The notes below the pieces were generated by a model. That model worked only from the letters and a program-made list of their open reading frames with translations. It ran no database searches and was not told the origin of the DNA. Made by a program: the position numbers and the translations under genes. From contig JBFLYH010000003.1 in NCBI GenBank assembly GCA_040756875.1, forward strand, positions 96,001-160,000: a stretch of DNA of 64,000 nucleotides, written 5' to 3'. The DNA is from a candidate division FCPU426 bacterium. Lineage in GTDB: Bacteria > Oederibacteriota > JAAXVQ01 > JAUVAV01. Positions 41,994 through 63,433 of this stretch are shown piece by piece (the stretch's first letter is position 1; the number at the start of each line of letters is the position of its first letter).

Positions 41994-43309
41994 TCGCTCC
42001 GCTGCAGGGGGAAGAATTGTTCGTTCACCTTGAGGTTGAACGTCTGCACGTAGCTGTTCAGGTCCAGGGCCGGGTCCACCATCAGGGCCTGCAGCAGGTC
42101 GCGGTCCAGCGAGTCCTTGATCAGCGTCCACTCGGGAAAGAGCGGCTCATTGCGCACGTACTGCAGTTCCTCCTTCACCATGGCGAACTCGGGGAGGTTG
42201 AGCAGGTTGGTGGAGGCGGAAAAGGCGCCCGGAAAAATCGTCATCTTCAGTTCGTTCATGCGCACCCACTTCCACAGCTGGGTGGCCGGCGAGAGTTCGA
42301 AGCGGATGTATTTCCAGGCCGCGTCGCGCCGCGCCTTGGGAATCTGGGCGTTGATGATGTACACCTCGCCGCCCGCGTGGCAGGCCCGGACGCCGTCCGG
42401 CCCGGCCGGCAGGGGCGCCACGCCCGTGGCCGAAAAATCCAGGCCGTACTTGTTGATCAGCACAGGCAGCTGGATGGCCACGCCGGTCATCATGGCCACT
42501 TTGCCCAGCGCGAACATCTGCGAAATGTCCTCGTGGCTGGCCAGGGTGTTGGGCGGCAGGATGTGGTACTCGCGCCTGAGGTCGCGCCAGAACTGCAGGG
42601 TCTGGATGACTTCGGGCGAGGCCAGGTTGACCTGCCATTGCCCGCGCGGGTCGCGCTGCACCAGTTCCCCGCCGTTCTGCCACACGAAATCCATCAGGTC
42701 CCAGGTCGTGGAGGGCAGGCCCAGGCCGTACTGCCCTTTGGCGGGCACGGTGAGCAGCTTGGCGAACTCGACCAGCTCCTCCCAGTTCTTGGGCGGCTTT
42801 TCCGGGTCCAGCCCGGCTTCGCGGAACAGGTCCTTGCGGTAGAAGAGCACCGTGAAGTAGGTGTCGCGCGGCACGCCGTAGGTTTTGCCGTCGATCTGGG
42901 TGGGCTCCCAGACGCTTTTGGGAATATAGTCCCGCTGGTCCCAATCCACCAGGTAATCGTCCATGGGCGTGATGAACCCCTGCCGCGCCAGGATGGAAAG
43001 AGTGCCGACCCAGATGTGCATGACGTCCGGCCCCTTGCCGCCGGCCATGGCTGTGACGAACTCCTGGGGCGAAAACTCGCGCTCAATGCTGTTGATCTTG
43101 ATGTCCGGCTCTTCCTGCTCGAAGCGCAGGATATTTTCCTTCCACAATTGCGCTTCTTTTTCCTGGCGGGAGGGGGGTTTGTTCCAGACCTGGAGCGTCA
43201 GCCCCCGGGAGGTGACTTCGTTGACGAAATAATAATTTTGGAACCACACGGCCAGCATAAAGACACCCAGCAGGATGAAGAACAGGGTGCCGATGATTTT
43301 TCTCAGCAT
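41990..43309 (-). CDS. Sugar ABC transporter substrate-binding protein
   Basis: N-terminal hydrophobic anchor; GKGPDV, DGKTYGVP and LFYRKDLFREAGLDPEKPPKNWEEL motifs. Confidence 0.9.
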   Translation of the reverse strand: MLRKIIGTLFFILLGVFMLAVWFQNYYFVNEVTSRGLTLQVWNKPPSRQEKEAQLWKENILRFEQEEPDIKINSIEREFSPQEFVTAMAGGKGPDVMHIWVGTLSILARQGFITPMDDYLVDWDQRDYIPKSVWEPTQIDGKTYGVPRDTYFTVLFYRKDLFREAGLDPEKPPKNWEELVEFAKLLTVPAKGQYGLGLPSTTWDLMDFVWQNGGELVQRDPRGQWQVNLASPEVIQTLQFWRDLRREYHILPPNTLASHEDISQMFALGKVAMMTGVAIQLPVLINKYGLDFSATGVAPLPAGPDGVRACHAGGEVYIINAQIPKARRDAAWKYIRFELSPATQLWKWVRMNELKMTIFPGAFSASTNLLNLPEFAMVKEELQYVRNEPLFPEWTLIKDSLDRDLLQALMVDPALDLNSYVQTFNLKVNEQFFPLQRSE

Positions 43310-43425: not shown

Positions 43426-45726
43426 TTACTTCTGGATGATCAGCACGATTTCAGCCCGCCGGTTCTTGGCCCGGCCGGCCGGCGTGGTCTCCGGCGCCAA
43501 GGGGAGGCGGGCGCCGTAACCCACGATCTCCATCTTATCTGTCGGTATCTTGCAGGAATAATGTAGGTACTCTTTCACCTTGCGCGCCCGTTCCCAGGCC
43601 AGTTCCAGTTCCTGGCCCTTGGCTTCCTGGGTGTCGGTGTAGCCCTTGATCTGCAGCCGGTACTTGGTGGCGTATTTATTGACCGTCTCGGCCGCCTGCT
43701 GCAAGCGGCGGAAGTCGCCCACCTGGATGGTCGTCGAGCCGGAGGCGAAATTGACCAGCGTCAGGTGCAGGGCCAGGGCCCGGGCGGTTTCCTCCACGCC
43801 CACGTCCGTGCCCACGGCCAGCATGGGCCCGGTGAAGGCAAAGGCGCCGGCAAAGGTCACGGTGGCCTGGGTCTGGAAGTAGGAGCCCATGCCGACCACC
43901 TGGCCGTTTTGGTCGCGGCAGTTCCAGACCACGCGGGCCGGCGGAGAACCGGCGCCCGCCAGGCGGCGGACCAGGTTCTTGTCCTCGGCCCCGCGGATCT
44001 CGACCTTCCAGGAGGACACTTCCTCCTTGGGCGCGATGTTCAGGGTGAAGGTCACGGCCGCGCCGCCCTTGGCCTTGAGGTCCACCAGCCTGGGTGCGGC
44101 TTCCATGCGGATCTTCGGTTCGACCGGCACCACGGCAAAAGTCTGGCCCGCGCTCTGGGCCTGGCCCTGCTCGTCCGTGACCACCATCACCGCCTCGTAA
44201 CCGCCCTCGTCCAGGGTCCGGCCGGCCAGCACCGGCACCCAGGGAATTTCCCGAGGCACCTTGCCTTCGCCGCTGAAGGTCTGCAGTTCCCGGCCCTCGC
44301 GCGAACGCACGGACAGCGTCCAGCGCACGGGCGGCAGGTTCTCGGCCTGGCGCGTCCGGAAGTACAGGGTCTGGGGCTTGCGGTCCGCGAACACCAGCAG
44401 CCGCTTGGGCACCACCTGCAGGGCGATGCCGGGCAGGGCCGAGCGGATCAGGACCGCGGCCAAGGCCTGGCCCAGCAGCCCGTTCTGCGCGTCGAACAAC
44501 TCCAGGCGCGCCTGGTAGGTGCCTTCGGGGCACAGGCTGCCGGCCTGGTCTTTTCCGTCCCAGGGGAACTGCTCGGTGTATTCCTGGCCGGTCCATTCGC
44601 GGGCCACGGTCCCGTCCGACCGGGCGACGGTCAGCCGCCAGTGGTGGACCAGGCTCAGATCGCCTTCCATCAGCTTGAGCTGGAACACCACGGAATCCGT
44701 CAACGTGCCGCCGCGCGGCGAGAAGACCTCGGGCAGGGCCAGCAGCTCCAGCTTGATCTCCGGCCGGGCCGCCGGCGCGGCGGCTGGGGTCGGTTCGGGC
44801 GTGGGCGCAGGCGGCGCCAGCTGCGGCAGGCCGTAGCTGGCGGCCAGGCGGTGCGACCACCCCAGTTCCGCGATCTGCCCCACCAGCGAATACTGGATGT
44901 CCCAGTCCGCCACCCGCACGCCCGCGCCGAAAGTGAACGTGCTGGCGTAGGAACTGTTGACCATGTAGCCCGCGCGCACGCCCACGATGTCCTGGAACCA
45001 CCGCTCCACGCCCAGGCGCAGCAGGCGGGTTTCCCGGGCCTGCTGGCCGGAGCCGATCCACTCCAGGTCCACGGCCGCGACCGTGGAGGCGTCGGGCCGC
45101 CAGGCCGATCCCAGGACCGCGCTTTGCGGCACCTGTTCGCTGAACCCGTTGTTCCAGGCCAGGCGGGTGTCCAGGTCCGCGAGCGTCAGGGACACGGCCA
45201 GCTGCTGGCCCGGCGCCGGAGCCGGCAGTAGATAGCGCAGGCCCACGTCCACGCCCAGGCCCGAATAATTCAGCTCGGCCTTGGGGATGAACCCGAAGAG
45301 GAATTTCAGGCCCGCGCCCAGGCGCAGGCGCTCGTCCGGCGTGAACGGCAGGCTGCCGGCCAGGTGCAGGGCGTCGGCGTTGATCTCCGCGGCCTGGGAA
45401 AAATATTCGTGCTGCCAGTTGAAGCCGGCGGCCGCGCCCGCGGGCAGCGGCCCGCCGGCCGCGAAGTTCACCACCCGCAGCCGGCCGTCGTACAGGGACC
45501 CGAATGACGTCCCGAAGCGCCAGGCCGAAAGGTCGCCCAGGCCCGCGGGGTTCCACGCCACCGCGGTCTCGTCGCCGGCCACGGCCGTATAAGCGCCGGC
45601 CATGCCCATGGCGCGCGCGCCCAGGCCGTTGGCCCCGCCCTTCTCATACAGGCCCGCGTTCAGCGCCTGCGGCCACAGCAGGGCCGCGGCCAGCAGCCAT
45701 CCCCATCCGGAGCCGGGCCGCCTCAT
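43426..45726 (-). CDS. PorV/FadL-like beta-barrel fused to three FlgD-like Ig domains and a C-terminal OmpA peptidoglycan-binding domain
   Basis: Signal peptide; [28 protein letters not shown]; amphipathic strands ending [18 protein letters not shown]...WDGKDQAG...EGTY; C-terminal NFASGS...IKGYTD...RARKV...GYG...[10 protein letters not shown]. Confidence 0.8.
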
Positions 45727-48700
45727 CGCACCACCGCCAGCTTGAGGATCTGCCGTTCGGTCTGGCCGCTGGACGGATCGGTCGCCGTCACCACCACCAG
45801 GTAGACGCCGCTGGCCAGGCGCTCGCCGCGGGCGTTGGTCATGTTCCAGGTCAGCATGTCAGAGGAGCCGAAGTCCAGCTTGGCCAGCAGCTCGCCCGTG
45901 ATCGTGTACACCTTGGCCTTCACCTGCGCGCCGGCCAGTCGCGTGCGCACCCAGATGACGACCGTGTCGCGCGCCGGGTTGGGCGAGAGTTTCGCCGCGC
46001 TCACCACCCGGGCCGCGGACCGGATCACGGTCACGGCCTTGGTGACCACGGTGCGACGGTCCAGGCGGTCCGTGCTGATCGCCTGGATGTAATACTGGCC
46101 GCTCGCGACCAGCTGGTTCTCCTCGTTGGTCCCGTCCCAAGTGCCCTGGAACAGGTTGTCCGCCCAGATCTGCAGCTGCTCCCGGCCGTCGGCGTTCAGG
46201 AGCTCGCTGGAAAGCTGGAAGTCGTTGGCCGTCTGGATGATCGGCGTCTCCAGCAGGGTGCGGACGCGGGTGCCGGCCGTATCCAGCACCAGCAGCACCA
46301 GGCGCACGCCCGCGATCTCGGTCGGCGTGGGCGACGCCGTGGGCGAGGCCGTGATGGTCGGGGTGATGGTCGGCGTGGGCGTGATCGTGGGCGTGGGCGT
46401 GATGGTCGGCGTCGCGGTCGCCGTGGGCGTGACTGTGAAGGTCTGGGTCACGGTAAACGTTTCGGTGACGGTCGGTGTGTCCGTATCCGTCGGTGTGACC
46501 GTGGGCGTGGGCGTGACCGTGTACGTCGGCGTCTGGGTCGGGGTCTCGGTGTCCGTGGGGGTCGAGGTCAGGGTCGGTGTGACCGTATACGTCGGCGAAT
46601 CCGTGGGCGTGAAGGTGGATGTCGGCGTGTCCGTCGGCGTCATGGTGATGGTTTCCGTCTCGGTAATGGTCAGGGTCGGCGTGGACGTGGGCGTATCCGT
46701 GGAAGTCCAGGTGTCGGTCGGCGTGGCGGTCGAGGTCGCGGTGTCCGTGTCGGTCGGTGTGGCGGTCGAGGTCGAGGTTCCGGTCGGCGTCATGGTCGCG
46801 GTATCCGTGTCCGTGGGCGTGGCCGTGGGCGTCTGCGTGCAGGTGGCGGTGGCAGTGGGGGTATCCGTCGGCGTCATCGTATAGGTACCCGTATCCGTCG
46901 GCGTGACGGTGGAGGTCGGCGTGTCCGTCGGCGTCATGGTCGCCGTGGCCGTATCCGTCGGCGTGGCGGTGGAGGTCGGCGTGTCGGTCGGCGTCACGGT
47001 CACGGTATCCGTGTCCGTGGGCGTGGCCGTGTAGGTCGGCGTATCGGTCGGGGTCATGGTATCAGTTTCGGTCTCTGTGGGCGTAGCCGTAGACTCCGGC
47101 GTATCCGTCGGCGTGACGGTGTAAGTCGGCGTATCTGTCGGCGTCATGGTCACGGTATCCGTGTCCGTGGGCGTGGCCGTGTACGTCGGCGTGTCCGTCG
47201 GCGTCATGGTCACGGTGTCCGTGTCCGTGGGCGTGGCCGTGTACGTCGGCGTGTCCGTCGGCGTCATGGTCGGCGTGTCCGTGTCCGTGGGCGTGGCCGT
47301 GTACGTCGGCGTATCGGTCGGCGTCATGGTCGACGTGTCCGTGTCCGTGGGCGTGGCCGTGTACGTCGGCGTGTCCGTCGGCGTCATGGTCGACGTGTCC
47401 GTGTCCGTGGGCGTGGCCGTAGAGGTCGGCGTGTCCGTCGGCGTCATGGTCGACGTGTCTGTGTCCGTGGGCGTGGCTGTGGACGTCGGCGTGTCCGTCG
47501 GCGTCATGGTCGCGGTATCTGTATCCGTGGGCGTGGCTGTGTACGTCGGCGTGTCCGTCGGCGTCATGGTCGACGTGTCCGTATCCGTGGGCGTGGCCGT
47601 GTACGTCGGCGTGTCCGTCGGCGTCATGGTCGACGTGTCCGTATCCGTGGGCGTGGCCGTGTACGTCGGCGTGTCCGTCGGCGTCATGGTCACTGTGTCC
47701 GTATCCGTGGCTGTGGCCGTGTACGTCGGTGTGTCCGTCGGCGTCATGGTCACGGTGTCCGTGTCCGTGGCTGTGGCGGTGTAGGTCGGCGTGTCCGTGG
47801 GCGTCATGGTCGACGTGTCCGTGTCCGTGGCTGTGGCCGTATACGTCGGCGTGTCCGTGGGCGTCATGGTCGCGGTATCCGTGTCCGTGGGCGTCACGGT
47901 CGGCGTGGATGTGGAGGTGTCTGTATCCGTCGGCGTAGCCGTGAACGTCGGCGTATCGGTCGGCGTCACCGTAAACGTCGGGGTGTCCGTCGGCGTAGCC
48001 GTAGAGGTCGGCGTATCCGTCGGCGTTACCGTAAAGGTCGGCGTGTCCGTCGGGGTTACCGTAAAGGTCGGTGTGTCGGTCGGCGTCACTGTAAACGTCG
48101 GGGTGTCCGTCGGCGTAGCTGTAAAGGTCGGCGTGTCCGTCGGGGTTACCGTAAAGGTCGGCGTGTCCGTCGGCGTCACCGTGTCCGTCGGCGTGTCGGT
48201 CGGCGTCGCCGTAGAGGTCGGGGTGTCGGTCGGCGTGGTGGTAAACGTCGGCGTGTCCGTGGGCGTGATGGTCGCGGTATCCGTGTCCGTGGGCGTCGCC
48301 GTAGAGGTCGGGGTGTCGGTCGGCGTGGTGGTAAGCGTCGGCGTGTCCGTGGGCGTATCCGTGGGCGTGACCGTGGAGGTGTCGGTATCCGTCGGCGTGG
48401 CCGTGGACGTGGGCGTGTCCGTCGAAGTCGGCGTGAACGTGGGCGTGTCGGTACAGGTCGCGGTATCCGTATCCGTCGGCGTCACGGTATAGGTTCCCGT
48501 GTCCGTGGGTGTGACCGTGAAAGTCGGCGTATCCGTGGATGTTTCCGTAATGGTCGGGGTCGGGGTGTGGGTGACGGTGTTGGTGATCGTATCCTTCAGG
48601 GTCGGCGTATCCGTGGGCGTCTCGGTGTTCGTGGGCGAAATGGTCGAGGTGAGGGTAATGGTATCCGTAGGCGTGGCCGTGCTGGTGTCCGTATCCGTGG

Positions 48701-51700
48701 GCGTGACTGTATACGTCGGGGTGTGCGTGGGGGTATCCGTGGGTGAAGCCGTGGAGGTCCAGGTATCGGTCGGCGTCGCCGTAGAGGTCGGGGTGTCGGT
48801 CGGCGTCACGGTGTAAGTATCCGTGTCCGTGGGCGTGGCTGTGTACGTCGGCGTATCGGTCGGCGTCGCGGTACTGGTTGAAGTGTCAGTGGGCGTCACG
48901 GTAACGGTCAGCGTATCCGTCGGTGTCACGGTGAAAGTTGGCGTATCCGTCGGCGTTACGGTGTACGTACCCGTATCCGTGGGCGTCACCGTATAGGTCG
49001 GCGTGTCCGTGGGCGTCGTCGTATCCGTGGGCGTATCGGTTGGCGTGACGGTATAGGTCGGCGTGTCCGTCGGCGTCACGGTAAAGGTCGGCGTGTCCGT
49101 CGGCGTCACGGTAAAGGTCGGTGTATCCGTCGGCGTCACGGTGAAAGTTGGCGTATCCGTCGGGGTCACCGTATACGTCGGGGTGTCCGTCGGCGTCACG
49201 GTAAAGGTCGGGGTATCCGTCGGCGTCACCGTATACGTGGGGGTATCGGTCGGCGTCACGGTATACGTCGGGGTATCGGTCGGCGTCACCGTAAAAGTCG
49301 GCGTGTCCGTCGGGGTCGCTGTATACGTCGGCGTATCCGTGGGTGTCACGGTAAAGGTCGGCGTGTCCGTCGGCGTCACCGTATACGTCGGGGTATCGGT
49401 CGGCGTCACCGTAAAAGTCGGTGTGTCCGTCGGCGTCACCGTATACGTCGGGGTATCTGTCGGCGTTACCGTATACGTCGGGGTATCCGTTGGGGTCACG
49501 GTATAGGTCGGCGTGTCCGTCGGCGTCACCGTATACGTCGGTGTATCCGTCGGCGTCACGGTAAAAGTCGGGGTATCTGTCGGCGTCACCGTATACGTCG
49601 GTGTATCCGTCGGCGTCACCGTATACGTCGGTGTATCCGTCGGCGTCACGGTATACGTCGGTGTATCCGTCGGCGTTACGGTATACGTCGGTGTATCCGT
49701 CGGCGTCACCGTATACGTCGGTGTATCCGTCGGCGTCACGGTAAAAGTCGGGGTATCTGTCGGCGTCACCGTATACGTCGGTGTATCCGTCGGCGTCACC
49801 GTATACGTCGGGGTATCCGTTGGGGTCACGGTATAGGTCGGCGTGTCCGTCGGCGTCACCGTATACGTCGGTGTATCCGTCGGCGTCGCCGTAAAGGTCG
49901 GGGTGTCGGTCGGCGTGGTGGTAAACGTCGGCGTGTCGGTCGGCGTGGTGGTAAACGTCGGCGTATCCGTCGGCGTCACGGTATAGGTCGGCGTGTCCGT
50001 CGGGGTCACCGTGTAAGTCGGTGTGTCCGTCGGCGTTACCGTGTAGGTCGGCGTGTCGGTCGGCGTGGTGGTAAACGTCGGCGTGTCCGTCGGTGTCACC
50101 GTGAAGGTCGGCGTGTCGGTCGGCGTGGTGGTAAACGTCGGCGTATCCGTCGGCGTCGCCGTAAAGGTCGGGGTGTCGGTCGGCGTGGTGGTAAACGTCG
50201 GCGTGTCGGTCGGCGTGGTGGTAAACGTCGGCGTATCCGTCGGCGTCGCCGTAAAGGTCGGGGTGTCGGTCGGCGTGGTGGTAAACGTCGGCGTGTCGGT
50301 CGGCGTCGCCGTAAAAGTCGGGGTGTCGGTCGGCGTGGCGGTATCTGTCGGCGTGTCCGTGGGCGTGGTGGTGAAGGTCGGGGTGTCGGTCGGCGTGGCG
50401 GTATCTGTCGGCGTGTCCGTCGGCGTCATCGTACCGGTCGGCGAATCGGTCGGGGTCTCGCTGGCCGTGTTGGTCGGCGTCGGGGTGAAGGTAAACGTGC
50501 CGGTGGCAGAGGCGGTCGGCGTCGGCGTGGGCGTAAAGGTCCGGCTGGCCGAAGGCGAAGGCGTGATGGTGGGCGTCAAGGTCACCGTGGCTGTGGGCGG
50601 GTTGTTGCTCCAGGAAATAATGCCGGGAATATTGGCCGTCAAGGCCGGGAACCCGGCGCCGCTGGCGGTCACGGTGTTGGTTTCCGGATTTTCATTGTGC
50701 ACGAGCACTTGCGCCCAGCCGTTGGCGTCGGCCACGCCGGTCAGGCTGTTGAAATAATAGGCGCCGGGCCTCAGCAGCGTGCTGTCGATAAAGAAGCTGG
50801 TGCCCGTGGTGGTCACGGTCAGGACCGCGGCGGACGAGGTGACGTTGCCGTAGCGGTCCGTGATCTGCAGGTCCACGTAAGCCGGGTTGCTGGTCAGCAC
50901 GTATTGCAGGGCCGGCGTGGCCACCACGTGGTCAGGCGCGCCGGCGATGAAAAGCACGCTTTCCGGCACGTCGCGGTCCGGCACGGCCGTGGAGCCGGGC
51001 AGGGTGGCTGAATGCGGGGTGGCCCAGGCGGTTTCCGCGGTCTGGTCGGTGATGGTAATGGTCGCCGCGCCCGTGCCGGCTGTGGTGCCGGTCACGTAAT
51101 TGGTGCCCACCCCGGCCGGGCCGGTGAGCGACGTGGCCGTGAACCAGGCGTTGCCGCTGGCGGTCACGGTAATGGCCTGGGCGCTGGCCACGTTGTTGCC
51201 GTCCGCGTCCACCACCTGGATGTTCAACACCCGCGTGTTGCCGGCCGTGACCGGCGTGCCCGTGGGATCGGTGATCACCAGATGGTCCGCGCCGCCCGAG
51301 GCAAACACCACGGTCGCGGACACGTCCAGGGCGGGATTGCCCCACAAGCCGCTATTCGGGGTCACGGTCACGGTCTGCGCGACCAGGTCGCGCAGGTTCA
51401 GAACCGCCTGGCCGCTGGCATTGGTGAACCCGAACGCCAGGTTGGTGCCCGCGCCGGTCCAGCCGCCGGGCACGCTGGCGAAATAGGCCGAGCCGCTGGC
51501 CGTGACCGTCACCGGGTAGCTGGCGCCCACGGCCGCGCCCGTGCTGTCATAGAGTTGCAGGGTGATGTCCTCGCCCGGCCCGCCGGCGCCCACGGCCGCG
51601 CTGCCGTCCACCGCGGTGGCCACCGTGTACAGCGGCGGCCGGAACGTGGTCTGGGCCGTTACGTCCCGGCCGGGCGTGCCCCAGGCGTGAGAGGGCGAAA

Positions 51701-54700
51701 CGGTCACGGTTTCGGCTGCAGCGTCGGTCAGGGTCGCGGTTGCGGAACCGTCGCCGCCGGTGGTGACCGCGATCGGGTTGCCGGCCGCGGGCGCGGTGAA
51801 AGTGGCCGAACCGGTGGACGTCAGGTTGAAGGTCTGCACGCCGGACAACGAATTGCCCAGGCTGTCGAACACCTGGCAGGTGAAGACCCGGGAAGCGTTC
51901 ACGGGCTGGGCCGACGTGGCCGGGAACACCGCGACGTAGTCCGCGGCCATCACGTAAAACTCGTAGAACCGGTCCTGGGTCACGCCGTTGCTTTCCGTGG
52001 CGGTCACGAACGCCGCCCATTTCCCGGTCGGGCTGTTGGGGAAGGTGTAGTTGTAGCGGTACCAGCGCCACACGGCCGGGCTGCCGGAGTCCGTGGCCAG
52101 CAGGGTCATAGCCGCGTTCAGCACCCGGGTGGTCCCGGCTGAATCCACGATGGTGATGACCGCGCCGGTGATGTCGTAGGCGCCCAGGGGGTCGGAGATC
52201 CGCGCGCCGAACGAGCCGGCGTAGCCTCCGGCCTGGGCCGCGATGGATTGGCGGGTGTTGCCCGACGCGTCGAAAACCTGGATGGCGTCCACCCGGATGT
52301 AAGTGGTGGTCGTCATCTGAACGCGGGAGCGCTGGGTGGTGGAGTGATAGACCCGGAAATAACCGGTGGTGCTGCCGTAGCCCAGGTGCGTGAACCGCAT
52401 GGCCAGGGCGTACCCGGCCGGCACGGTGACCGGCGAAGCCACGGGAATGGTGAACGTCCGGGTGGCCGGCGTGCTGTTGGGAATCTGGATGGCCGTCAGC
52501 GTGGTTTCGCCGATCACCACGGTGTTGAAGCCATTGGTGTAAAAGAGCGTGACCGTGGCGTCCACGGAGCGGTTGTTGGTGGCGAGGATCAGCGGGATGG
52601 TCACGTTGGCCGTAATGGTGAAATCATCGGCCAGGGCCGGCTGCATGGACCAGGTTTGCTGGGAGAAAATCGGAATCAGCGTGTAGGTGCCGGTCGCGCT
52701 GGGGTCCGGCGTCGTGTCCAGGGAATAATTGGAAGCGCTGGGATGCAAATACAATGTCTTGGTTCTCGCGGCGGGCGCGAGCGATGTGGTGGTGAAGGTG
52801 GCGGTGCCCTGCAGGGACCCGCTTTGCTGCTGGGCGGTCAGGTGGATGACGTCCGTCACCCCGCCGCGTTCGCTGGCCGGGATGGACTTGCCCACCAGCA
52901 GGAACGTCGGCGTGCCGGCGGCCACGTTCACGTCCGGCCGGCTGTTGCCGTTGGTGTCATAGCCCCCCAGGACCCAATCCCAGGTGCCGTCGCCCGCCGC
53001 GTCCGCGGCAATGGTCACGCCCGCAGGCGTCAGCAAGTACGTGGCCCAGCCCGCGGTGGAGGGCGTGACCGTCAGGTCCCAGCGGTCCGTGACCGCGCTG
53101 CTGGTCAGGGACACCCCGTAATACACGGTCCGGCCCGGGTTGGCGGACGCGCTCCCGTCCGGCGCCAGGGAAAAGCCGCTGACCACGAAGGTCACGGTCC
53201 GGGAGTCGTTGCCCGTGTTCTGGTCCGTGTAGCCGGTGTCCGCGGCCAGGTTGGTGTACAGCTTGGCCGTGTAGGTGCCGGCCGGGACCGAGGAAATATC
53301 GAAGGCGCAGGTCACGGTCGCGGTCTCGGCGTCCGGCACGCTCAGGTCCACGGCCGTGAAGGTGACGTCTACGGGCGTGAAGGACGGGGCCGTGGACGTG
53401 ATCGAAATGTGCACCGGCAGGCCGAAGAAATCCTGCAGGCCGTACAGGGCTACCAGGCCCTGGATGTTGACCAGGGGGGTGACGCTGGGGTTGTACACCG
53501 TGCCGTCCGCCGGCGCGCTCAGGCTGTGGATGCCCGTGTCGTGCATCTTGCTCATGCCGTAGTCAATGCCGTCCTTCATGTCCTGGTAGGCCGTGCCGTT
53601 GGGCGTGTTGCTGTAGGACCAGACCACGGGCATGACCCAGGTGGACTGGGCGTTGAGGCTGGCGCGGTCCCAGGCCAGGGCTGTGCCCGCGTCGCCGAAA
53701 TAGTTGTTGTTGTTCTGCAGGTTGTCGTCGCGGATCCGCTGCCACATGGGAATGTACGCGGAGACGTCGTGCTGCGAGGAAGTTTCCCAGCCCCTGAATC
53801 CGCCGTAAGAAATCGGGCTGCCCGAGGGCTTGTAGCCGTACACGATGTCGTCCGTGGCGTTGTAGGCGCAGCTGTCGCCGGTGTTGTCGCCGCTGAAGTT
53901 CCAGTCCAGGCCCTGGAAGAACCTGAGGCTGGTTGCCTGCGTGCTGGCGTGGAGGTTTTTAATGTAATAGATGGCGGTGAACCACTTGAGGTTGCCGCGG
54001 ATGATGACCTTCTGGGTGATCGAGACCGGGACCGGCGCGCCCGCGGGCGCCGCCAATTCCGTGACAATGACCGATTCCAGCTTGCCGTTGGGCGTCTCGT
54101 GCAATTGCGTGTACGTCCGGGAAAGGTCGGTGAAATCGCCGTCGGCGCCGGTGTTGATGCCGCCGGGATTCCCGTACTGCCGGGTGAGGCCGCCGGCCGT
54201 GTAGCGCAGGGCGAGCTTGCTGCCGGCCATGTTGTCGTAGTTGGTGCCCAGGTTGTTGTCGCCCGTGCGGCCCAAGTGGTCGTCCGCGGCCGAGGGCATG
54301 CCGCCGTTGTAGGGCCAGATGATGGCCGAAATCTGGCCGCCGTAATCATTGCTGGCCGTGCCGGCGATCTCCACCATCAGGGAGTTGCTCGGCCCGGGGG
54401 GCGAAAGGAAGACCGTGTAGCCGGTGATCGGGTCGTCGTAGAAAACCAGCTGGCTGCCTTCCATGTACCACTGCAGGTTCTCGCCCTGGACCTTGCCGGT
54501 GGCGCGGTCCTGCGTGCCGCGGTTGGCGATTACCAGGCCGTCCGCGCGGCGGATCTCCCGCACGCGGTACCCGGCCGGGATGTCCGCGGTCAGGCGGTAC
54601 CACTGGCCCTCGAGCTTGTCGCTGAGCGTGAGTTCCAGGCAATTGTCCGCCAGGCGGTTGGCCTGGCGCAGGCGGGCGCGTTCCAGCCCGGCCGCGGGGC

Positions 54701-55100
54701 GCAGGGCGCCGCGGTAGCCGGACAGGTCCTGGTAGGCGTGCTCCACGTACAGCCGCCGGCCGGGCTTCAGCTGGCGGCCGCGGCCCAGGCGCAGGCCCGG
54801 GCGGAAGGCGCTGGTTTCCACCTGGCCTTCGCTCACGCTGCGCACGCGCACCGGCGTCAGGGCCCCCAGGCCCTGCGGCACCGCGGCGTCGGCGGCCACG
54901 CCCTGGCTGCGCAGCTGGCCGGGCTCGGGCGCCACGGCCTGGCGCACCACGTACTCGCGGCTGGCCGGGTCCCAGGCCAGCACCTGGTCCGGCGGCGCGG
55001 GCGCGTACGCGGCCTGGCTGGCCGCAGCCGCAGCTAGCAGCGCGATTACGCCGGCTGCCGAGGCCAGGAATCTGATTGTCGGTCGAACGTCACAGCTCAC
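45723..55100 (-). CDS. 3125-aa secreted surface protein: Ig-like N-terminal half, ~1420-aa Thr/Pro stalk, FlgD-like domain and T9SS-like C-terminal sorting domain
   Basis: GTG start with GGAGG RBS, Ala-rich signal peptide; TPTDTPT(F/Y)T(V/A/T) repeats; C-terminus SPNPARD...[10 protein letters not shown]...[19 protein letters not shown]...LKLAVVR. Confidence 0.9.
46321..50600 (-). repeat. 30-nt (10-aa) tandem coding repeat with 60-nt higher-order units
   Basis: Near-identical units such as gtatacgtcggtgtatccgtcggcgtcacc (~49000-50400) and 60-nt units encoding [20 protein letters not shown] (~47100-47900); roughly 140 decamers. Confidence 0.95.
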
Positions 55101-55147
55101 CGACGGCCCTCCGGAAAAATACGGTTAGCGTACAGGTCCCCCCTGCT

Positions 55148-55414
55148 TTAGTGCCTGGGGTTGGCGCACACGTGCTTGATCGCCTTGCTCAAGGCCACCA
55201 CCAGATCAGCCCCGAACTGCTGCTGCATCTCCGCCACGCGCGTGAAGGTGTGGCCCTTGTCGGTCACCACGTACTTGGGCGGCAGATGGTTCAGCGCGTG
55301 GGCCAGGATGTCCAGCCGGCACCGGCTGCACTTGCATACCTCGGGCCTGCGTTTTTCCAACAGCTCGTCCAGGGCGTTGCGTGCCGCGTCTTCCATATAA
55401 TTCTTCAGTCTCAT
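55148..55414 (-). CDS. ComFB-family protein (stand-alone; candidate cyclic-dinucleotide receptor)
   Basis: LKNYMEDA...CKCSRCRLDILAHALNHLPPKYVV...V..NPRH matches the ComFB pattern including the Zn-binding cysteines. Confidence 0.85.
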   Translation of the reverse strand: MRLKNYMEDAARNALDELLEKRRPEVCKCSRCRLDILAHALNHLPPKYVVTDKGHTFTRVAEMQQQFGADLVVALSKAIKHVCANPRH

Positions 55415-55662
55415 GCTGCTCCTCCGTTTTCGGGTTTGCCTACCGGTTCGGCGCCGTTTAAGCGCAGCAATTCCTTGATTCCTCGGATATGGATGCCGCG
55501 GCCCGAGTATTCCCTGATTTTTTTGAGCCGCTGCAGGTCATAGGTGGAATACACCCGCACCTGGCCGATGCGATTGGGCCGGATCAGGCCCTGGCGTTCC
55601 CAATTGCGGAGTGTCTGCGTGTGGACATTGAGCATTTTGGCCACTTCGCCGATGGATCTCAT
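55411..55662 (-). CDS. Small MerR-family HTH regulator (HspR/BldC-like, no effector domain)
   Basis: SIGEVAKMLNVHTQTLRNWERQGLIRP.R...RVYS..DL; AAGGAG RBS; stop overlaps the ComFB start (ATGA). Confidence 0.88.
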   Translation of the reverse strand: MRSIGEVAKMLNVHTQTLRNWERQGLIRPNRIGQVRVYSTYDLQRLKKIREYSGRGIHIRGIKELLRLNGAEPVGKPENGGAA

Positions 55663-55759
55663 GATCATCACTCCTTTTAAAATGATAATGAATAGTGTTT
55701 GTAATAAGCTTTTGGTATCAATAGTCTCGATTGTTTTTGTCAACAACTTAACAAAACTA

Positions 55760-55788
55760 ATTATATCAACTAACAGATTTTTTGTCAA
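55760..55788 (-). promoter_or_regulatory. Perfect-consensus sigma70 promoter for the MerR-ComFB-giant protein arm
   Basis: TTGACA (55788-55783) - 17 nt - TATAAT (55765-55760), with extended TG. Confidence 0.85.
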
Positions 55789-55985
55789 TTTTAGTGGAGT
55801 TATTTTAATCATTTGCTGCACCATTAAACCATTATTTTTAAAGGGTTTTTAGTAATCTCTTTTAAATCCAACAAAAAACCTGCTTCATACTTTATAGACT
55901 TTCTTTCCTACAATATAGGTTCCGGTTTTTCTTAACAAAACGCTTATCCTGCCGTAACTAATCCAGTGAATCCATAGGGAGACAA

Positions 55986-58328
55986 ATGCCCATGAAAAAA
56001 ACCTTATTGTTCTCGTTTCTATGCCTCCTGGCCTGGCAGCCTGCGCTGAGCCTGGCTTCCATGATCGACGCCCAGCCCCAGCCGGTCGGGTTCGACGGCC
56101 AGCGCTACAGCGCCTCGTCCCGCTACAATGTCGTGGCGCGCGTGGAACTGACTGCCGATGCCTCGGGCGGCACGCTCAATTCCATCTTCTTCTACAACGA
56201 CTTGCACGCCCTGGCGGCCGAGGAAGGCCTGGACATCGTGTCCGGCAGCACCCGGCTGTGGTACGCCTATCCGGACACCGGGAGCCTCAACACCACCACG
56301 GCCCAGCTGGTCGGGACCTTCACCTACTACTCCCCCACGTTCTGGGAGCTGGTGTCCCTGAACCAATGGGTCCGCGACAGCGGCTGCCTGTATGTGACCG
56401 TGGACATTACAGCCGGGCCGCGCGAGAACGCCATTTGCGCGTTCTACACCAAGGCCTACGAAATGGAATTCGACAATTATTCCTTCACCGCCCCCAGCAG
56501 CGACTCGCCCGCCTCTCCGCCCGCGATTTACCTCACCTCCTACACCGCGCCCACGCAGCTGGACGCTTCCGCAAGCAAGCTGCACCCCCCGACCGTGTCC
56601 ACGGGGCAGACCGCCACTTTCCTGGAATTCACGCTGGACAACGTGGGCGGCGGCCTGACCGGGCCCGTGTTTCTCAGCGGCCTGACCGTCACGGTGCGTG
56701 ACCAGGGCGGCGCCGTGCTCGCGCCCAACCAGCTGTTCGACAGCCTGGGCCTGCGCGACAGCGTGACCGACGCGGTGCTGTCCTTCGTGGCCGCGCCGCC
56801 GTCCGCAGCCACGGGCGTGTACTTCCCGCTCGCGGTCTCAATATCCGCGGCCGTGGACCGCAGGCTCAAGCTGTTCGGCACGGTCACGTCCAACACGGCC
56901 ACGGCCGTGGCGTTCCGCCTGGGCTGGGAGCAGGCGGCTGACGCCGACGCCCGGTACCTGTACACCGGCGCGCCGGTCACCGTGGCGCCGGCTTCGGGGT
57001 TCGCTTTCCCCCTGCAGACCGACCTGATCCCCGTGCAGCTGGCCGCCTCGCAGCTGCAGGTGTACCACACGCCGGGCCTGCCCGACCAAACCGTGGTCCT
57101 GCGCGGCGACACCAACGTCGCGCCCGTTTACTTCACGTTCCTCAATCCGGGCACCACCGGCACGTCGCGCGTGGATGTCACGCACCTGACCCTGACGGTC
57201 ACGGACGGGTCGGGCAACACCCTGTCGCCGGCCTCGGTCTTCACGCGCGTGGCCGTGACCGGCAGCCTGCTGTACGGCGAAATCACGTCCCTGCCCGCCA
57301 CGGGCAGCGACATCACCATTTCCCTGAGCAACAGCTACATCGGCGTGCCGGTGTACCAGCCGGTCACGGTCACCGTGCAGGCGGACATCCATCCCACGGC
57401 CAACACCGTGGCCTTCAGGCTGCAACTGGCCGGTTCCGGCGCCGTGGTGGCGCAGGACGCCAACACCCTGCAGGGCGTGCCCGTGGTGGCGGCGTTCGCC
57501 TCGGACCCGTTCCCCATGATCTCTCCCACCGTGCGCCTGGCCAGTTCTTTCCTGGTCACCAGCCAGTCCCTGGCGCCGGCCACGCTGTATCCCGGCCAGC
57601 AGACCGCCCTGCTGGACCTGACGTTCACGCATCCCGGGCCCGCGGACCTCGGGCCCCTGGTCCTGCTCGGCCTGACCCTGACCAGCCGGGACCAAAACCA
57701 GAACCCCGTGATCCTCTCGGCTGTGTGCAGCGAGGTCCTGCTGCGCGCGGCGGACAACACCCTCCTCGGCCAGGCGGCTCCGCCCGCGGCCGGGAGCCAG
57801 GTGTTCCTGGCCGTGCCCGCGCTGTCCGTGGCGCCCTTTGCCTCGGCGCGCGTCCGCGTGGAAGTGAAGCTGCTCAGCCAGCCGCAGGCCGGCACGTTCA
57901 GCCTGGGCCTGGAAGCCGCGGCCTCGGTCAGCGTCACCCAGCCGCTCGATCCCACGCGGCCGGTGTACGTGTCCGCTAGCTGGCCCCTGTTCTCCGCGGC
58001 GGCGGCCGTGGGCGGCGGCGAAGGCAGGCTGCGCCTGGCGAATTACCCCAATCCCTTCGGCGCGGGCCGGGAAAGCACGCGGATCGCGTATTACCTGGCC
58101 TCGCCTTCCACGGTCACGGCCGTGCTCTACACCCTGGCCGGCGACCAGGTCTGCACCCTGGCCCAGGGCGCCTACCAGGCGGCCGGCGAGCAGGTGCTGG
58201 TGTGGAACGGCCGCACGGCCAGCGGCGCGGTGGTGAGGAACGGCGTTTACCTTCTGCGCTTGGAGGCAGTGCCCGCGGCTGACGGCAGCGCGGTCATCCA
58301 AGTCCGCAAAGTGGCGGTGGTGAAATGA
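55986..58328 (+). CDS. Secreted beta-sandwich repeat protein with T9SS-like/FlgD-type C-terminal domain
   Basis: Signal peptide MKKTLLFSFLCLLAWQPALS; three to four similar ~170-aa Ig-like modules; C-terminus NYPNPF...TRIAYYL...LYTLAG...VWNGRTASG..VRNGVYLL...RKVAVVK. Confidence 0.85.
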   Translation: MPMKKTLLFSFLCLLAWQPALSLASMIDAQPQPVGFDGQRYSASSRYNVVARVELTADASGGTLNSIFFYNDLHALAAEEGLDIVSGSTRLWYAYPDTGSLNTTTAQLVGTFTYYSPTFWELVSLNQWVRDSGCLYVTVDITAGPRENAICAFYTKAYEMEFDNYSFTAPSSDSPASPPAIYLTSYTAPTQLDASASKLHPPTVSTGQTATFLEFTLDNVGGGLTGPVFLSGLTVTVRDQGGAVLAPNQLFDSLGLRDSVTDAVLSFVAAPPSAATGVYFPLAVSISAAVDRRLKLFGTVTSNTATAVAFRLGWEQAADADARYLYTGAPVTVAPASGFAFPLQTDLIPVQLAASQLQVYHTPGLPDQTVVLRGDTNVAPVYFTFLNPGTTGTSRVDVTHLTLTVTDGSGNTLSPASVFTRVAVTGSLLYGEITSLPATGSDITISLSNSYIGVPVYQPVTVTVQADIHPTANTVAFRLQLAGSGAVVAQDANTLQGVPVVAAFASDPFPMISPTVRLASSFLVTSQSLAPATLYPGQQTALLDLTFTHPGPADLGPLVLLGLTLTSRDQNQNPVILSAVCSEVLLRAADNTLLGQAAPPAAGSQVFLAVPALSVAPFASARVRVEVKLLSQPQAGTFSLGLEAAASVSVTQPLDPTRPVYVSASWPLFSAAAAVGGGEGRLRLANYPNPFGAGRESTRIAYYLASPSTVTAVLYTLAGDQVCTLAQGAYQAAGEQVLVWNGRTASGAVVRNGVYLLRLEAVPAADGSAVIQVRKVAVVK

Positions 58329-60055
58329 TGAAGCCTCTCCTTCTCATTGGTTTGGGCCTGGGATTGACGCTGGCCGCGCCGCAGGTTGCGCCTGCCGGCC
58401 AGGACGCGGGCAGCGACTCGGTGCTGGAAATGGGAGCCGGCGCGCGGGCCGTGGCCATGGGCCGCACGGGCGTGGTCGAGGACCAGTCCGCCTATGCCGC
58501 GCAGTGGAACCCCGGCAGCCTGGGCTTCCTGCCCAGGCCGGCGGCGGCCGTGCAGCACGCGGCCCTGTTCGGCGACGCCAGGCACGAAAGCCTGGCCGTG
58601 GTTTATCCCACCCTGGATTACGGCACGTTCTCCCTGATCCTCATGCGCCTGGACCTGGCCGGCGTCGAAGGCCGGGACGCGGACAACCTTCCGACCGGCG
58701 AATTTTCCTTCGTGGAGCAGCAGGCTTCCCTGGGCTACGGCTACCCGGTGTGGGGGCCCTTGTCCCTGGGCGCGGCGCTCAAGGTGCACGACCTGCGCCT
58801 GGCCGGTTACGCGGGCACGGGCGTGGGCGTGGATGCCGGCGCACTGGCCCGCTTCCCCCTGGAAACCGTGTGGCTCGAGGAAGTGGCCGTGGCCGCGGCC
58901 TGCCGCAACCTGGTCGGGCCGTCCCTGCGCCTGCACCAGGAAACCGATCGCCTGCCGGCCGGCTACCGCGCGGGCGCGGCTGCGCGCTTCTCGTTCATCG
59001 ACTCGATCCCCGACTCCCTGTGGGTGCGGGCCGAGGCGGAAAAAGGCGAGCAATCCGACTGGCGCCTGCACGCGGGCGTGGAGTACAGCCTGTACGACAG
59101 CGTGGCCGTGCGCGGCGGCTGGGACCAGGAATATTTTTCCGCCGGCGCAGGCGTGACCTACGCGGGCTTCAGCCTGGACTACGCGGTCAGCTTTCCGGTC
59201 CTGGGCCTGCGCCATTTGGTGACCCTGTCCGTGGCCCTGGGCAAGGACATGGCCGCCCAGCGCGCCGAGCGGACCTCGCAGGAAGAAAAGCGGCGCCAGG
59301 AAATCGTGGCCAACCTGCAGAAGAAGATCATTGCGGACTACCGGCGCCAGGCCCAGGCCAGCGCGGCCAAGCGCGACTTCAGCGAGGCGGCCAAGGGTTG
59401 GGAAAAGATCCTGGATTGGGACCCGAACGACGCCGAGGCCCGCGAGCAGCTGGCCGTGGCCCAGCGCGAAATCATCCGCCAGCAAAACGCGCAGGACATC
59501 CAGGACGCGCAGGAGCAAATGCGCAAGCAGGAGTACATCGACGTGCTGGTTTCCTGCCAGCAGGTGCTGGAGCGCGATCCTGAAAACGAAATCGCCAAGG
59601 CCCTGTACGACCAGGCCGAGAAAAAGGCCTCGCGCCTGGGCAGTTACTCCCTCAACACCAACTTCAAGCAGCTGGAAAACATCCGCGAGGAGTACCAGCT
59701 GGGCTTGAAGGCCTATACCCAGCGCCGGTTCAGCGAAGCCATCACGCACTGGGAAAAGGTCATCGAAACCACGCCCCTGCAGAAGCAGGTGTACCGCTAC
59801 CTGCAGAGCGCCCGGCAGCGCGTGCTCGCGGCCCAGGAGAAAAAGACCGCCCCAACCGCGCCGGCCGAGCCCACCAAGCAGCAGAAGCTGTACAAGGAAG
59901 CGGTCGAGCAGTCGCGCAACGGCAACCTGAAAGCCGCGGTGCGGACGTGGGAAAAACTGGTCAAGGAGAACCCCGAGGACCAGGACGCCAAGCAGAATTT
60001 CGAGGAGACGAGGAAGAACCTGATCGACAGCCAGAAGAAAGGGATCAGCTGGTAG
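58325..60055 (+). CDS. PorV/FadL-like beta-barrel fused to C-terminal TPR-like helical repeats
   Basis: Signal peptide; GAGARAVAMG...AQWNPGSLG; strands ending LDYAV...LGLRHLVTLSV; then repeats such as WEKILDWDPNDAEA, VLERDPENEIA and WEKLVKENPEDQDA. Confidence 0.8.
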   Translation: MMKPLLLIGLGLGLTLAAPQVAPAGQDAGSDSVLEMGAGARAVAMGRTGVVEDQSAYAAQWNPGSLGFLPRPAAAVQHAALFGDARHESLAVVYPTLDYGTFSLILMRLDLAGVEGRDADNLPTGEFSFVEQQASLGYGYPVWGPLSLGAALKVHDLRLAGYAGTGVGVDAGALARFPLETVWLEEVAVAAACRNLVGPSLRLHQETDRLPAGYRAGAAARFSFIDSIPDSLWVRAEAEKGEQSDWRLHAGVEYSLYDSVAVRGGWDQEYFSAGAGVTYAGFSLDYAVSFPVLGLRHLVTLSVALGKDMAAQRAERTSQEEKRRQEIVANLQKKIIADYRRQAQASAAKRDFSEAAKGWEKILDWDPNDAEAREQLAVAQREIIRQQNAQDIQDAQEQMRKQEYIDVLVSCQQVLERDPENEIAKALYDQAEKKASRLGSYSLNTNFKQLENIREEYQLGLKAYTQRRFSEAITHWEKVIETTPLQKQVYRYLQSARQRVLAAQEKKTAPTAPAEPTKQQKLYKEAVEQSRNGNLKAAVRTWEKLVKENPEDQDAKQNFEETRKNLIDSQKKGISW

Positions 60056-60071
60056 GAGGGTAGCAAAAACC

Positions 60072-60110
60072 AAAGGGGACAGCAGGCATTCAGCCTGCTG
60101 TCCCCTTTTT
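60072..60110. terminator. Intrinsic terminator between convergent genes
   Basis: AAAGGGGACAGCAGGC-ATTCA-GCCTGCTGTCCCCTTTTT. Confidence 0.85.
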
Positions 60111-60126
60111 CATTTCCCGGCCCGGT

Positions 60127-60537
60127 TCACAGCTTCGCGGCAAACTCCTCGAAGGCTGCGTCAGGCTGGGGCCCGCGAAATTTGAATATAGCGGCCACCC
60201 GGCCGCCGTGACTGGACACCGTCTCGGCCATTTTTTTCAGAGACGAGCCCACGGCCAGCTTGTAGGTGCAGAAGAGCGCCACCTTTTTCCCCGCCAGGTC
60301 AGGCAGGGTCCGGGCAAACTGCCGGAAGGGTTTGCTGGGCTGCTGCAAAATGATGAACAGCCCGCTGATCCAGCACCCCAGGAAAAGCATGTCCGCCCGC
60401 TTCAAGGCCGCGGGATCAGCGGCCTGCACGTCCACCGCTGAGCATTGATGGCCTTTAGCCTTCAGGATGTTGGCCATGGCTTCCGCGGCTTTTTTGGTGA
60501 TGCCGGTCTTGCTGTCGTACACGATCGAGATGTTCAT
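60127..60537 (-). CDS. Flavodoxin-family protein
   Basis: IVYDSKTGITKKAAEAM FMN loop, DMLFLGCW and GKKVALFCT motifs; GGAGG RBS. Confidence 0.8.
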   Translation of the reverse strand: MNISIVYDSKTGITKKAAEAMANILKAKGHQCSAVDVQAADPAALKRADMLFLGCWISGLFIILQQPSKPFRQFARTLPDLAGKKVALFCTYKLAVGSSLKKMAETVSSHGGRVAAIFKFRGPQPDAAFEEFAAKL

Positions 60538-60672
60538 GCGCAACCCCTCCTCCTGGTTTTAAGTGGGTTGTATTGTACCATAGTCCAGCCGGCTGGAAGG
60601 CAAGACTGCGCTTGGCCGTGCCATTCGGACATCCAACCAACGTCCCCCATTATTCCGGCCCCATGCGCCGGT

Positions 60673-61251
60673 TCAGAATTGCGCCTTGACCCTCCAGCGG
60701 GATTCCTGTTTCAGATGATAATCCCGCGGTGTTTCGATGGCCAGGATCTTCCCGCGGGCATACTCCACCAGCGCCGTAAAGTAGCCCGCCAGGTATTCCT
60801 TGCGCACCTCGCTGAATTCGGGGAAATCGCGCACCACAAAATCGCAGGTCATGAACCGGTTTTCCATTTTATAATTTTCAATCACGGCCACGCCCTGGTC
60901 ATTGTATTGGCGCCAGATTTTCGCCACGCGGTTGAGGACAAACTCCATGCTCGCCATGCGAAAAAATATTCTATACACGCCTTTGATTTCGCAATTGGCG
61001 ATGGCCTTGCCCAATTCCCTGACAGGCTTGGCGGCTTCTGGGAAGAGCATCCGGGCCGCGACATAAAAAATGCTTTTTTCGCCTGAACTGGTGTCATCTT
61101 CAACGCGCGTCACGGCCAGGGCGTTGAGATAGACCTCTTTTTCCTTGGGCAGCAATTTTTCCAAAAAAACCTGCTCGAACTCGGGACCGCGGGCCCGGAT
61201 CAATTCCCGCATGCTGACGAACGGCGCCCCTTTAAAGCTGGTCGCGGACAT
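60673..61251 (-). CDS. Hypothetical protein, DUF2378/V4R-like ligand-binding fold
   Basis: KG..F, LG..IA...IKGVYRIFFR...IWRQYNDQG and YLAGYF pattern; family call from memory only. Confidence 0.5.
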   Translation of the reverse strand: MSATSFKGAPFVSMRELIRARGPEFEQVFLEKLLPKEKEVYLNALAVTRVEDDTSSGEKSIFYVAARMLFPEAAKPVRELGKAIANCEIKGVYRIFFRMASMEFVLNRVAKIWRQYNDQGVAVIENYKMENRFMTCDFVVRDFPEFSEVRKEYLAGYFTALVEYARGKILAIETPRDYHLKQESRWRVKAQF

Positions 61252-61483
61252 GGCAGCTCCTCCCACCGGCAGATGGCGTTATTATACCACCAAACCCGCA
61301 AGGGATATGGATGTCTGCCATAAAGGAATGCGCCTCCGGCAGCAGGGATCACTGCAGGAGAAAAACCAATTGACGGTTGAAAAAGGCGGATATAGAATCG
61401 CATTGAAATTTGATTTTTATCAAGTGACCAGGCCCCTGAAGCGCCATTCACTAGTCTCACTTTAACGAAGGACTCTCATTATC

Positions 61484-62665: not shown

Positions 62666-62674
62666 GGGGTCAGG

Positions 62675-62899
62675 CTATTTATAATAGGCGACATAATAGT
62701 CCAAAACCCTGCGGATCATCTTTTGGTAATGGAATCGTTTTTTCTTCGCATGCGCCTTAAAAAATTCCACACTGGCCTTGCTGAGCGTGATCGTCACCTT
62801 GACCTGGTCGGATTTTTCCGCCAGTTTTTCGGGCGGTGGCAGAAAATCATCCACCACTTTCAGCTTCATGGGCTCATGGGTATATTTTATTTTTTTCAT
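62675..62899 (-). CDS. BrnA/CopG-like ribbon-helix-helix antitoxin
   Basis: KIKYTHEP...VVDDFLPPPEKL...KVTITLSK..VEFFK...YQKMIRRVLDYY. Confidence 0.75.
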   Translation of the reverse strand: MKKIKYTHEPMKLKVVDDFLPPPEKLAEKSDQVKVTITLSKASVEFFKAHAKKKRFHYQKMIRRVLDYYVAYYK

Positions 62900-62963
62900 G
62901 ATACACCTTCCTTCCGCGCCTCCAGTATCCCGCTCCGATGATCCTGATTTTATGATTGCGGAT
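62874..62963 (-). pseudogene. 3' remnant of a BrnT-family toxin gene
   Basis: Reads IRNHKIRIIGAGYWRRGRKVYHEKNKIYP*, overlapping the antitoxin start. Upstream the frame meets TGA at ~63004 with no ATG/GTG/TTG start. Confidence 0.7.
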
Positions 62964-63425: not shown

Positions 63426-63433
63426 CCCGGAGG

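Follow-up and report, generated by a model that had tools for sequence, protein, structure and literature searches.

Genes for T9SS-like cargo proteins are paired with genes for PorV-family barrels in a candidate division FCPU426 bacterium

In a 64,000-nucleotide stretch of a candidate division FCPU426 genome (assembly GCA_040756875.1, contig JBFLYH010000003.1, positions 96,001 to 160,000 of the forward strand; hereafter the window, whose own numbering is used below), two divergent gene arms share one layout. A gene for a large signal-peptide protein, called the cargo here, is followed directly by a gene for a barrel protein. The original prediction, made from the letters alone, saw in these arms either a minimal two-partner display system related to the Bacteroidota type 9 secretion system (T9SS) or a T9SS variant with cargo-specific adaptors. 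The locus thus raises the question of whether each pair is self-contained or belongs to a larger secretion machinery. The second alternative fits the evidence and is the best-supported reading: each arm would comprise a cargo and its dedicated PorV-family shuttle and anchor, with PorE-like modules fused to the barrel, within a T9SS-like system that has a SprA-like pore. We consider this arrangement probable, though well short of certain. The four genes and their parts are as follows.

43426-45726, minus strand: P0001, 766 aa; signal peptide, barrel of the PorV family (about aa 36-299), linker of Pro/Ala type, a trio of Ig-like domains of the FlgD_ig beta-sandwich type (about aa 325-659) and OmpA peptidoglycan-binding domain (aa 660-756); PorV_fam 56.8, OmpA 51.8 and FlgD_ig 34.4 bits, custom barrel hidden Markov model (HMM) 187 bits, AlphaFold2 (AF2) model with predicted local distance difference test (pLDDT) score of 77.5
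45723-55100, minus strand: P0002, cargo, 3125 aa; signal peptide, head, stalk, FlgD_ig-like domain and terminal C-terminal domain (CTD)
45726-46001, minus strand: CTD of P0002, T9SS type A-like, last 92 aa; matched by TIGR04183, PorZ and PorU C-terminal regions and the custom CTD HMM
46319-50557, minus strand: repeat DNA for the TPTDTPT(F/Y)TV stalk of P0002, with tandem-repeat periods
55986-58328, plus strand: P0003, cargo, 780 aa; signal peptide, repeated beta-sandwich modules and terminal CTD
58032-58325, plus strand: CTD of P0003, aa 683-780; FlgD_ig 34.5 bits, CTD alignment and predicted docking on the P0004 barrel
58325-60055, plus strand: P0004, 576 aa; signal peptide, PorV-family barrel (aa 25-310, 58397-59254) and TPR-rich tail (about aa 335-575, 59327-60049)

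The open reading frame (ORF) list with translations contained all four genes at the predicted positions, in two divergent arms. At both window junctions, the only ones for which such an overlap is claimed in this genome, the cargo stop codon and the barrel start codon overlap by four bases (ATGA), so that each cargo has a coupled barrel partner, as had been proposed. The overlap suggests stoichiometric co-production of cargo and barrel. The quoted motifs were also recovered, GARA..M...WNP in both barrels and PNP...G..V...W...G..VASGVY...K.AVV(K/R) at both cargo ends.

The likeness of these endings to the T9SS type A sorting domain and the FlgD Ig fold was borne out by profile searches. The P0002 tail scored 43.1 bits on FlgD_ig, 27.5 on TIGR04183 (cut-off 23) and 24.4 on PF18962 (cut-off 27), and it also matched the models for PorZ and PorU at their C-terminal ends. 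Matches of the P0003 tail were to FlgD_ig and, again at the C-terminal end, to the PorU and M6i models. In an alignment of 19 CTDs, residues G, W, G, Y and K proved invariant, and a K-x-A/V-V-x-K/R motif stood at the end. The best PDB match of the profile built from these 19 domains was the PorU CTD (6za2_A, residues 1057-1154, E 3.5e-10), followed by FlgD Ig domains (about 3e-5), PorZ (5m11_A, 1.3e-4) and a RemA-type CTD (8glj_D, 6.4e-3). At the level of sequence, these matches support the assignment of the cargo C-terminal domains to the T9SS-type CTDs.

The barrels had been described as PorV-like, with ordinary FadL transporters as the competing assignment. In the NCBIfam scan, P0004 scored 109.2 bits on the PorV_fam model NF033709 (cut-off 90). 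A profile built from the 43 barrel domains of the genome, P0001 and P0004 included, matched solved PorV in the PDB with E 2e-41; the next match was TodX with 1.5e-7, TodX and TbuX both lying near 1e-7. The AF2 model of the P0004 barrel, computed from the same 43-domain alignment, had a pLDDT of 92.4 and a predicted template modelling (pTM) score of 0.88. In a Foldseek search of the PDB, carried out for the P0004 barrel only, PorV took ranks 1 and 2 (8gl6_F with TMq 0.81 and 6h3i_F with TMq 0.79), and TbuX, FadL and TodX followed below it at TMq 0.58-0.68. Neither P0001 nor P0004 matched, at E 0.1, TIGR03519 (PorP/SprF; the genome's highest score being 23.6 bits, with the cut-off at 90.55), an Omp85/POTRA domain of the TpsB type in Pfam, or UPF0164. 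The latter family comprises treponemal FadL-like outer-membrane proteins, and its gathering score was passed by many paralogues in this genome (e.g., 47 bits against 21.4), in contrast to the two window barrels. To our knowledge, no link between UPF0164 and CTD cargo has been described. Taken from profile and model comparisons, the placement of the window barrels in the PorV/PorQ family, and not among ordinary FadL transporters, is supported.

Neither window barrel is barrel-only. P0001 continues into three Ig-like domains and OmpA, and P0004 into a TPR-rich tail some 240 aa long, with several Pfam TPR matches across residues 335-575 (TPR_2, 35.9 bits); the extra modules named in the original prediction are thus present. 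In the AF2 model of mature P0001, a disordered Pro/Ala linker follows the barrel, and behind it come three beta-sandwich domains and one alpha/beta domain resembling OmpA. A Pfam census of the tails of 42 of the 43 genome barrels yielded 12 with OmpA (six of them with FlgD_ig), eight with TPR, two with FlgD_ig alone, two with fn3 and one with a solute-binding domain; about 13 were barrel-only and a few had a longer tail without a Pfam family. Approximately two thirds of the barrels therefore carry a C-terminal OmpA, Ig-like, TPR, fn3 or solute-binding domain, and the tails of P0001 and P0004 represent the two commonest architectures of the genome. The odd one out is a PorV-like barrel on contig 2 (864166-866349, plus strand) whose fused tail is a periplasmic solute-binding domain of the phosphonate type (PF12974, 57 bits).

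The pairing of cargo and barrel genes extends across the whole genome, which comprises 3.22 Mb in 7 contigs and is rated 100% complete. NF033709 gave 44 matches in 42 ORFs, 33 of which scored above the cut-off. Custom HMMs for barrels and CTDs, iterated on all stop-to-stop ORFs, identified 43 ORFs with PorV-like barrels and 103 with CTD-like domains, the latter lying no more than 12 residues from the ORF end in 103/103 cases. A terminal-CTD ORF stood directly upstream and on the same strand for 32/43 barrels, where about 1.4 would be expected by chance for 103 CTD genes among roughly 3000 genes (binomial P ~3e-38). Between the last cargo codon and the beginning of the barrel match, the pairs had −12 to 238 nt. 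For another four barrels a CTD gene comes next on the downstream side, which brings the barrels adjoining a CTD gene to 36/43.

Paired genes of this kind could in principle serve uptake, with hydrophobic substrates passing through the barrels as FadL-like channels and the CTD proteins acting as their capture partners at the surface, comparable to SusC/SusD. PorV does lie within the FadL-like fold, weaker matches to TodX, TbuX and FadL were obtained, and one paralogue carries the periplasmic Phosphonate-bd domain. However, PorV leads the matches clearly, in sequence as in structure; in all 103 cases the very C-terminal end of the partner protein is a secretion-type CTD; docking of this CTD on the barrel is predicted (see below); and OmpA and TPR tails are typical of anchoring or scaffold proteins. 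We give hardly any credence to an uptake function.

Conservation of the pairing, a further expectation of the original prediction, was found both in a close relative and in other families of the phylum. Among 41 genomes of the same phylum, representing 14 families, all 41 had PorV_fam matches, from 10 to 46 per genome. A related metagenome-assembled genome (locus L029) has kept both arms in the same divergent layout: an ortholog of P0003 (74% identical) is followed by a stop/start-overlapping barrel 73% identical to P0004, and the opposite strand carries the head of a P0002 ortholog (75% identity). In three genomes from three other families, 58 barrel matches were listed, and for 53 of them the 1 kb upstream was searched; of the five omitted, two were a second piece of an ORF included already, and three were short, with E between 2.8e-4 and 5.1e-4. 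A terminal CTD ORF was present upstream of 34/53 barrels (25/35 in G018, 5/8 in G021 and 4/10 in G037).

Components of the T9SS core were then found outside the window, and they decide against the claim of a minimal, self-contained system. The remark that the window lacks sprA was correct; a SprA/Sov homologue is located elsewhere, on contig 1, as a 2149-aa ORF that scored 223.5 bits on TIGR04189 (cut-off 200) when scanned as one protein and was matched in five pieces in the genome search with the same model. Among the phylum genomes, 38/41 contained a SprA-like giant at E ≤ 0.001, usually in an open frame of 1700-2300 aa, and in seven genomes it exceeded the cut-off with its pieces summed. 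The genome also encodes a PorU-like C25 protease of 1195 aa (Peptidase_C25, 167 bits) with its own terminal CTD, detected by the custom HMM; its match to the PorU model NF033707 was partial (84.4 bits against a cut-off of 420). The protease gene (contig 2, 430914-434498, minus strand; L028:4914-8498) has no adjacent PorV-like barrel, its neighbours being ORFs of 266 and 195 aa without a family match.

A complete canonical T9SS, which could have explained the CTDs by itself, was not detected either. The GldK/L/M/N models had no match in this genome, and GldM matched in 0/41 phylum genomes; both searches lacked a positive control, there being no T9SS among the 14 control genomes, and divergent forms of these proteins could therefore be missed. 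Because SprA/Sov and C25 genes are present and GldK/L/M/N were not detected, the system is neither self-contained nor a canonical T9SS.

These results bear on the possibility that the barrel alone exports the cargo, or inserts and anchors it, independently of SprA. Such a two-partner unit would be in keeping with the tight translational coupling through ATGA, with the periplasmic modules that the barrels bear themselves, and with the failure to detect GldK/L/M/N in the genome or GldM in the 41 phylum genomes, subject to the missing positive control. Yet barrels of the PorV/FadL type have about 14 strands and are far too narrow for a large folded passenger such as one of 780 or 3125 aa. The genome has a SprA/Sov homologue above the cut-off, as do 38/41 relatives at E ≤ 0.001; 69/103 CTD proteins have no barrel of their own and therefore need a shared route; and the Omp85/POTRA domain of TpsB-type transporters was found in neither barrel. 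A self-sufficient pair is consequently very unlikely in our judgement.

In the T9SS-like reading that we favour, events would run as follows. The cargo would be exported by Sec, and its CTD would then lead it through the single SprA/Sov-like outer-membrane translocon of the genome. The co-translated PorV/PorQ-family barrel may grip the CTD and keep it, by analogy with PorQ and PorZ, PorV and PorU, and PorP/SprF and type B cargo, and would thereby act as shuttle and permanent surface anchor at once. We infer that the C-terminal tail of the barrel faces the periplasm, where it would give in cis what PorE gives in trans in Bacteroidota. The OmpA domain of P0001, set on its three-Ig spacer, would tie the complex to peptidoglycan, and the TPR arm of P0004 may serve a periplasmic partner. 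All of this would have to be energised without a detectable GldLM/PorLM motor.

Several known systems come close to this scheme. PorV (LptO) of the Bacteroidota T9SS, solved in the Flavobacterium johnsoniae SprA-PorV and SprA-PorV-RemA-CTD complexes (6h3i, 8gl6), belongs to the same family, has a CTD partner, and works with SprA, a homologue of which is present here. PorV is, however, one barrel-only shuttle for all type A cargo, whereas here 43 paralogues exist, most of them encoded right after one cargo gene; fused tails occur on about two thirds of them, and the PorKLMN motor was not detected. Permanent holding of a CTD is also known: passages of PMC10202324 describe the PorU and PorZ CTDs of Porphyromonas gingivalis as retained, uncleaved, on PorV and PorQ, with a PorV/PorQ-family barrel holding the CTD of one surface protein, and that review puts forward the hypothesis that cognate PorV-like barrels shield CTDs from cleavage. 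The CTD profile obtained here matches the PorU CTD best among solved chains, and the PorZ CTD as well. In contrast, those are two housekeeping pairs of the machinery, and here seemingly dozens of cargo proteins would have their CTDs retained.

The closest likeness in gene order is to the type B CTD proteins and their PorP/SprF barrels (SprB-SprF, Fjoh_3952-3951-3950, PG1035-PorP-PorE), where the cargo gene is directly followed by the barrel gene, as in both arms here, and where stoichiometric, non-recycled cognate partners have been proposed. According to sections of PMC12618676, type B cargo genes of F. johnsoniae commonly have a porP/sprF-like gene directly 3', and secretion needs the cognate shuttle; five of these operons include a PorE homologue, and the authors speculate on a static, cell-wall-anchored complex. 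A PorE-PorP-PG1035 complex of P. gingivalis appears in an excerpt of PMC9143113. PorE itself, according to PMC5053529, consists of TPR, beta-propeller, CRD and OmpA_C; its TPR and OmpA_C modules are those fused to barrels here, but PorE is a separate protein. The present pairs further differ from type B pairs in that the barrels belong to the PorV/PorQ family and not to PorP/SprF, and in that the CTDs are type A/FlgD_ig-like.

Several observations weigh against this reading. Without PorKLMN, a SprA-type translocon has no known energy source. The P0003 tail matched neither TIGR04183 nor PF18962 at E 0.1, and the PorV_fam score of P0001 (56.8 bits) is under the cut-off of 90. The system is not strictly one-to-one, because 69/103 CTD proteins have no adjacent barrel and 7/43 barrels have no adjacent CTD gene. 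In complex predictions for the P0003 CTD and the P0004 barrel, the median score of three runs was 0.87, and the best of 3 controls reached 0.01, which supports binding as a model-based prediction; as a like PorV-CTD complex has already been solved (8gl6), the score may reflect that likeness and is no proof of binding by P0003 and P0004, and since it covers the cognate pair only, it has no bearing on cognate specificity. The runs agreed in at least 97% of contacts, with a partner pLDDT of at least 89. The mark used for the score was reached by 116/157 solved complexes and 2/215 mismatched pairs, counts that are only rough here, custom alignments having been used.

Covariation of the two partners has a similar limit. 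Across 32 pairs, the distance matrices of barrels and CTDs were correlated (Mantel test, Spearman r 0.278; reached by 0/5000 permutations), and the nearest neighbour was common to barrel and CTD in 10/32 pairs. On the tree of 103 CTDs, the barrel-adjacent state required 16 changes compared to 28.8 ± 2.1 after shuffling (0/1000 as low). Both signals can also arise from duplication of whole operons without binding specificity; they therefore show that the pairs travel as units, not that the partners have co-adapted.

It is this point that bears on whether the barrels are redundant, interchangeable PorV paralogues whose adjacency to cargo genes reflects operon duplication and co-expression and not cognate recognition. 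We consider this unlikely. The copies diverged long ago (the median identity is 26% among barrels and 24% among CTDs), yet the pairing has been kept, also across families of the phylum; the barrel-adjacent state clusters on the CTD tree; and the stop/start overlap suggests that the partners are made in equal amounts. On the other side stand the single set of motifs common to all CTDs, the ability of co-duplication to yield a Mantel signal, and the crosstalk among F. johnsoniae type B shuttles recounted in part of PMC12618676.

If the favoured T9SS-like arrangement is correct, it follows a known logic with different parts: cognate PorV-family barrels for type A-like CTDs, on a much larger scale and with no detectable motor. 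The rule of the cognate shuttle, for which type B CTDs with PorP/SprF are the only case shown to date, would be extended to the PorV family and type A-like CTDs. Natural fusions of barrels with PorE-like modules would tell which parts work together, and the phylum would allow a test of how SprA-type translocation can be energised without PorLM. For annotation, a PorV-like barrel gene right after a CTD gene can serve as a rule for recognising surface proteins of uncultured phyla.

A broader proposal, which we put forward only tentatively and hold to be doubtful, is that type 9-like secretion without PorKLMN is phylum-wide and relies on a SprA-like pore, a C25 protease and cargo-specific PorV-type barrels with absorbed PorE modules. 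The cargo-barrel pair might then be the basic, perhaps ancestral, unit, to which the Bacteroidota motor was added later, with the drive coming from binding and folding at the barrel or from an unrecognised energiser acting via the TPR arms. As far as the consulted extracts of the literature go, the T9SS is a machine of Bacteroidota and the FCB group that needs a PorLM/PorKN motor and has one general PorV shuttle for type A cargo, and the TXSScan survey, in its extract (PMC4793230), places it only in Bacteroidetes. Our search, which did not cover subscription journals and supplements, found no paper on cargo-paired PorV-family barrels or on a motor-less T9SS outside Bacteroidota.

The two cargo proteins differ in build. 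P0002 begins with a head of about 1500 aa with Ig-like repeats, a weak Big_1 match and a protein atlas score of 0.76. There follow a Thr/Pro stalk of about 1400 aa composed of TPTDTPT(F/Y)TV decapeptides, a FlgD_ig-like domain and the CTD. If rooted at the barrel via the CTD, P0002 would form a long surface fibre, with its Ig-rich N-terminal head carried on the stalk. The stalk DNA has a 30-nt period (84 copies, 76% matches, 47926-50457) and a 60-nt period (13 copies, 92%, 47100-47894), and the repeat length in the assembly may be unreliable. The Thr/Pro arrays are candidate O-glycosylation sites; a PMT_2 glycosyltransferase gene adjoins the SprA-like gene (L027:14142-15683). The passenger of P0003 looks to be a chain of beta-sandwich modules without a family match, for which the protein atlas returned only sub-threshold Ig/CARDB-like look-alikes. 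Beyond the weak Big_1 match, Pfam and NCBIfam gave nothing for the cargo passengers.

The mirror symmetry attributed to the arms held for the shared cargo-barrel layout but is not exact, because two small minus-strand genes sit between them, 5' of the 3125-aa gene:

55148-55414, minus strand: ComFB-family small protein, 88 aa, 5' of P0002 on the same strand (PF10719, 84 bits)
55411-55662, minus strand: MerR-type HTH regulator; translation from the ATG at 55662 gives 83 aa (PF13411, 65.4 bits)
55663-55985, no strand: divergent intergenic region, AT-rich by its sequence, with the presumed promoters of both arms

The MerR-type and ComFB genes (55148-55662), lying directly 5' of P0002, may regulate that arm. 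The barrels of P0001 and P0004 are only 24% identical, and neither is the nearest paralogue of the other; the symmetry therefore does not stem from a recent inverted duplication. That origin was ruled out also at the level of the pairs, neither being the nearest neighbour of the other.

Elsewhere in the genome, a four-gene run on contig 1 (1002063-1030323, minus strand) encodes a 7689-aa CTD protein, a divergent 325-aa PorV-like barrel missed by NF033709, a 337-aa NHL beta-propeller and a protein of 1101 aa that contains LysM and, at 30.8 bits, a weakly SprA-like stretch. Within the window, the region 3' of P0001 (40182-43309, minus strand) contains ABC sugar-type transporter genes (SBP_bac_1 at 41990-43309, permease domain in 40182-42131), which are probably unrelated neighbours. 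Past P0004, at 60001-64000, the G+C content drops from about 0.68 to 0.50-0.57, and this region carries a flavodoxin-like gene (60127-60543, minus strand) and a radical SAM gene (61484-62665, plus strand).

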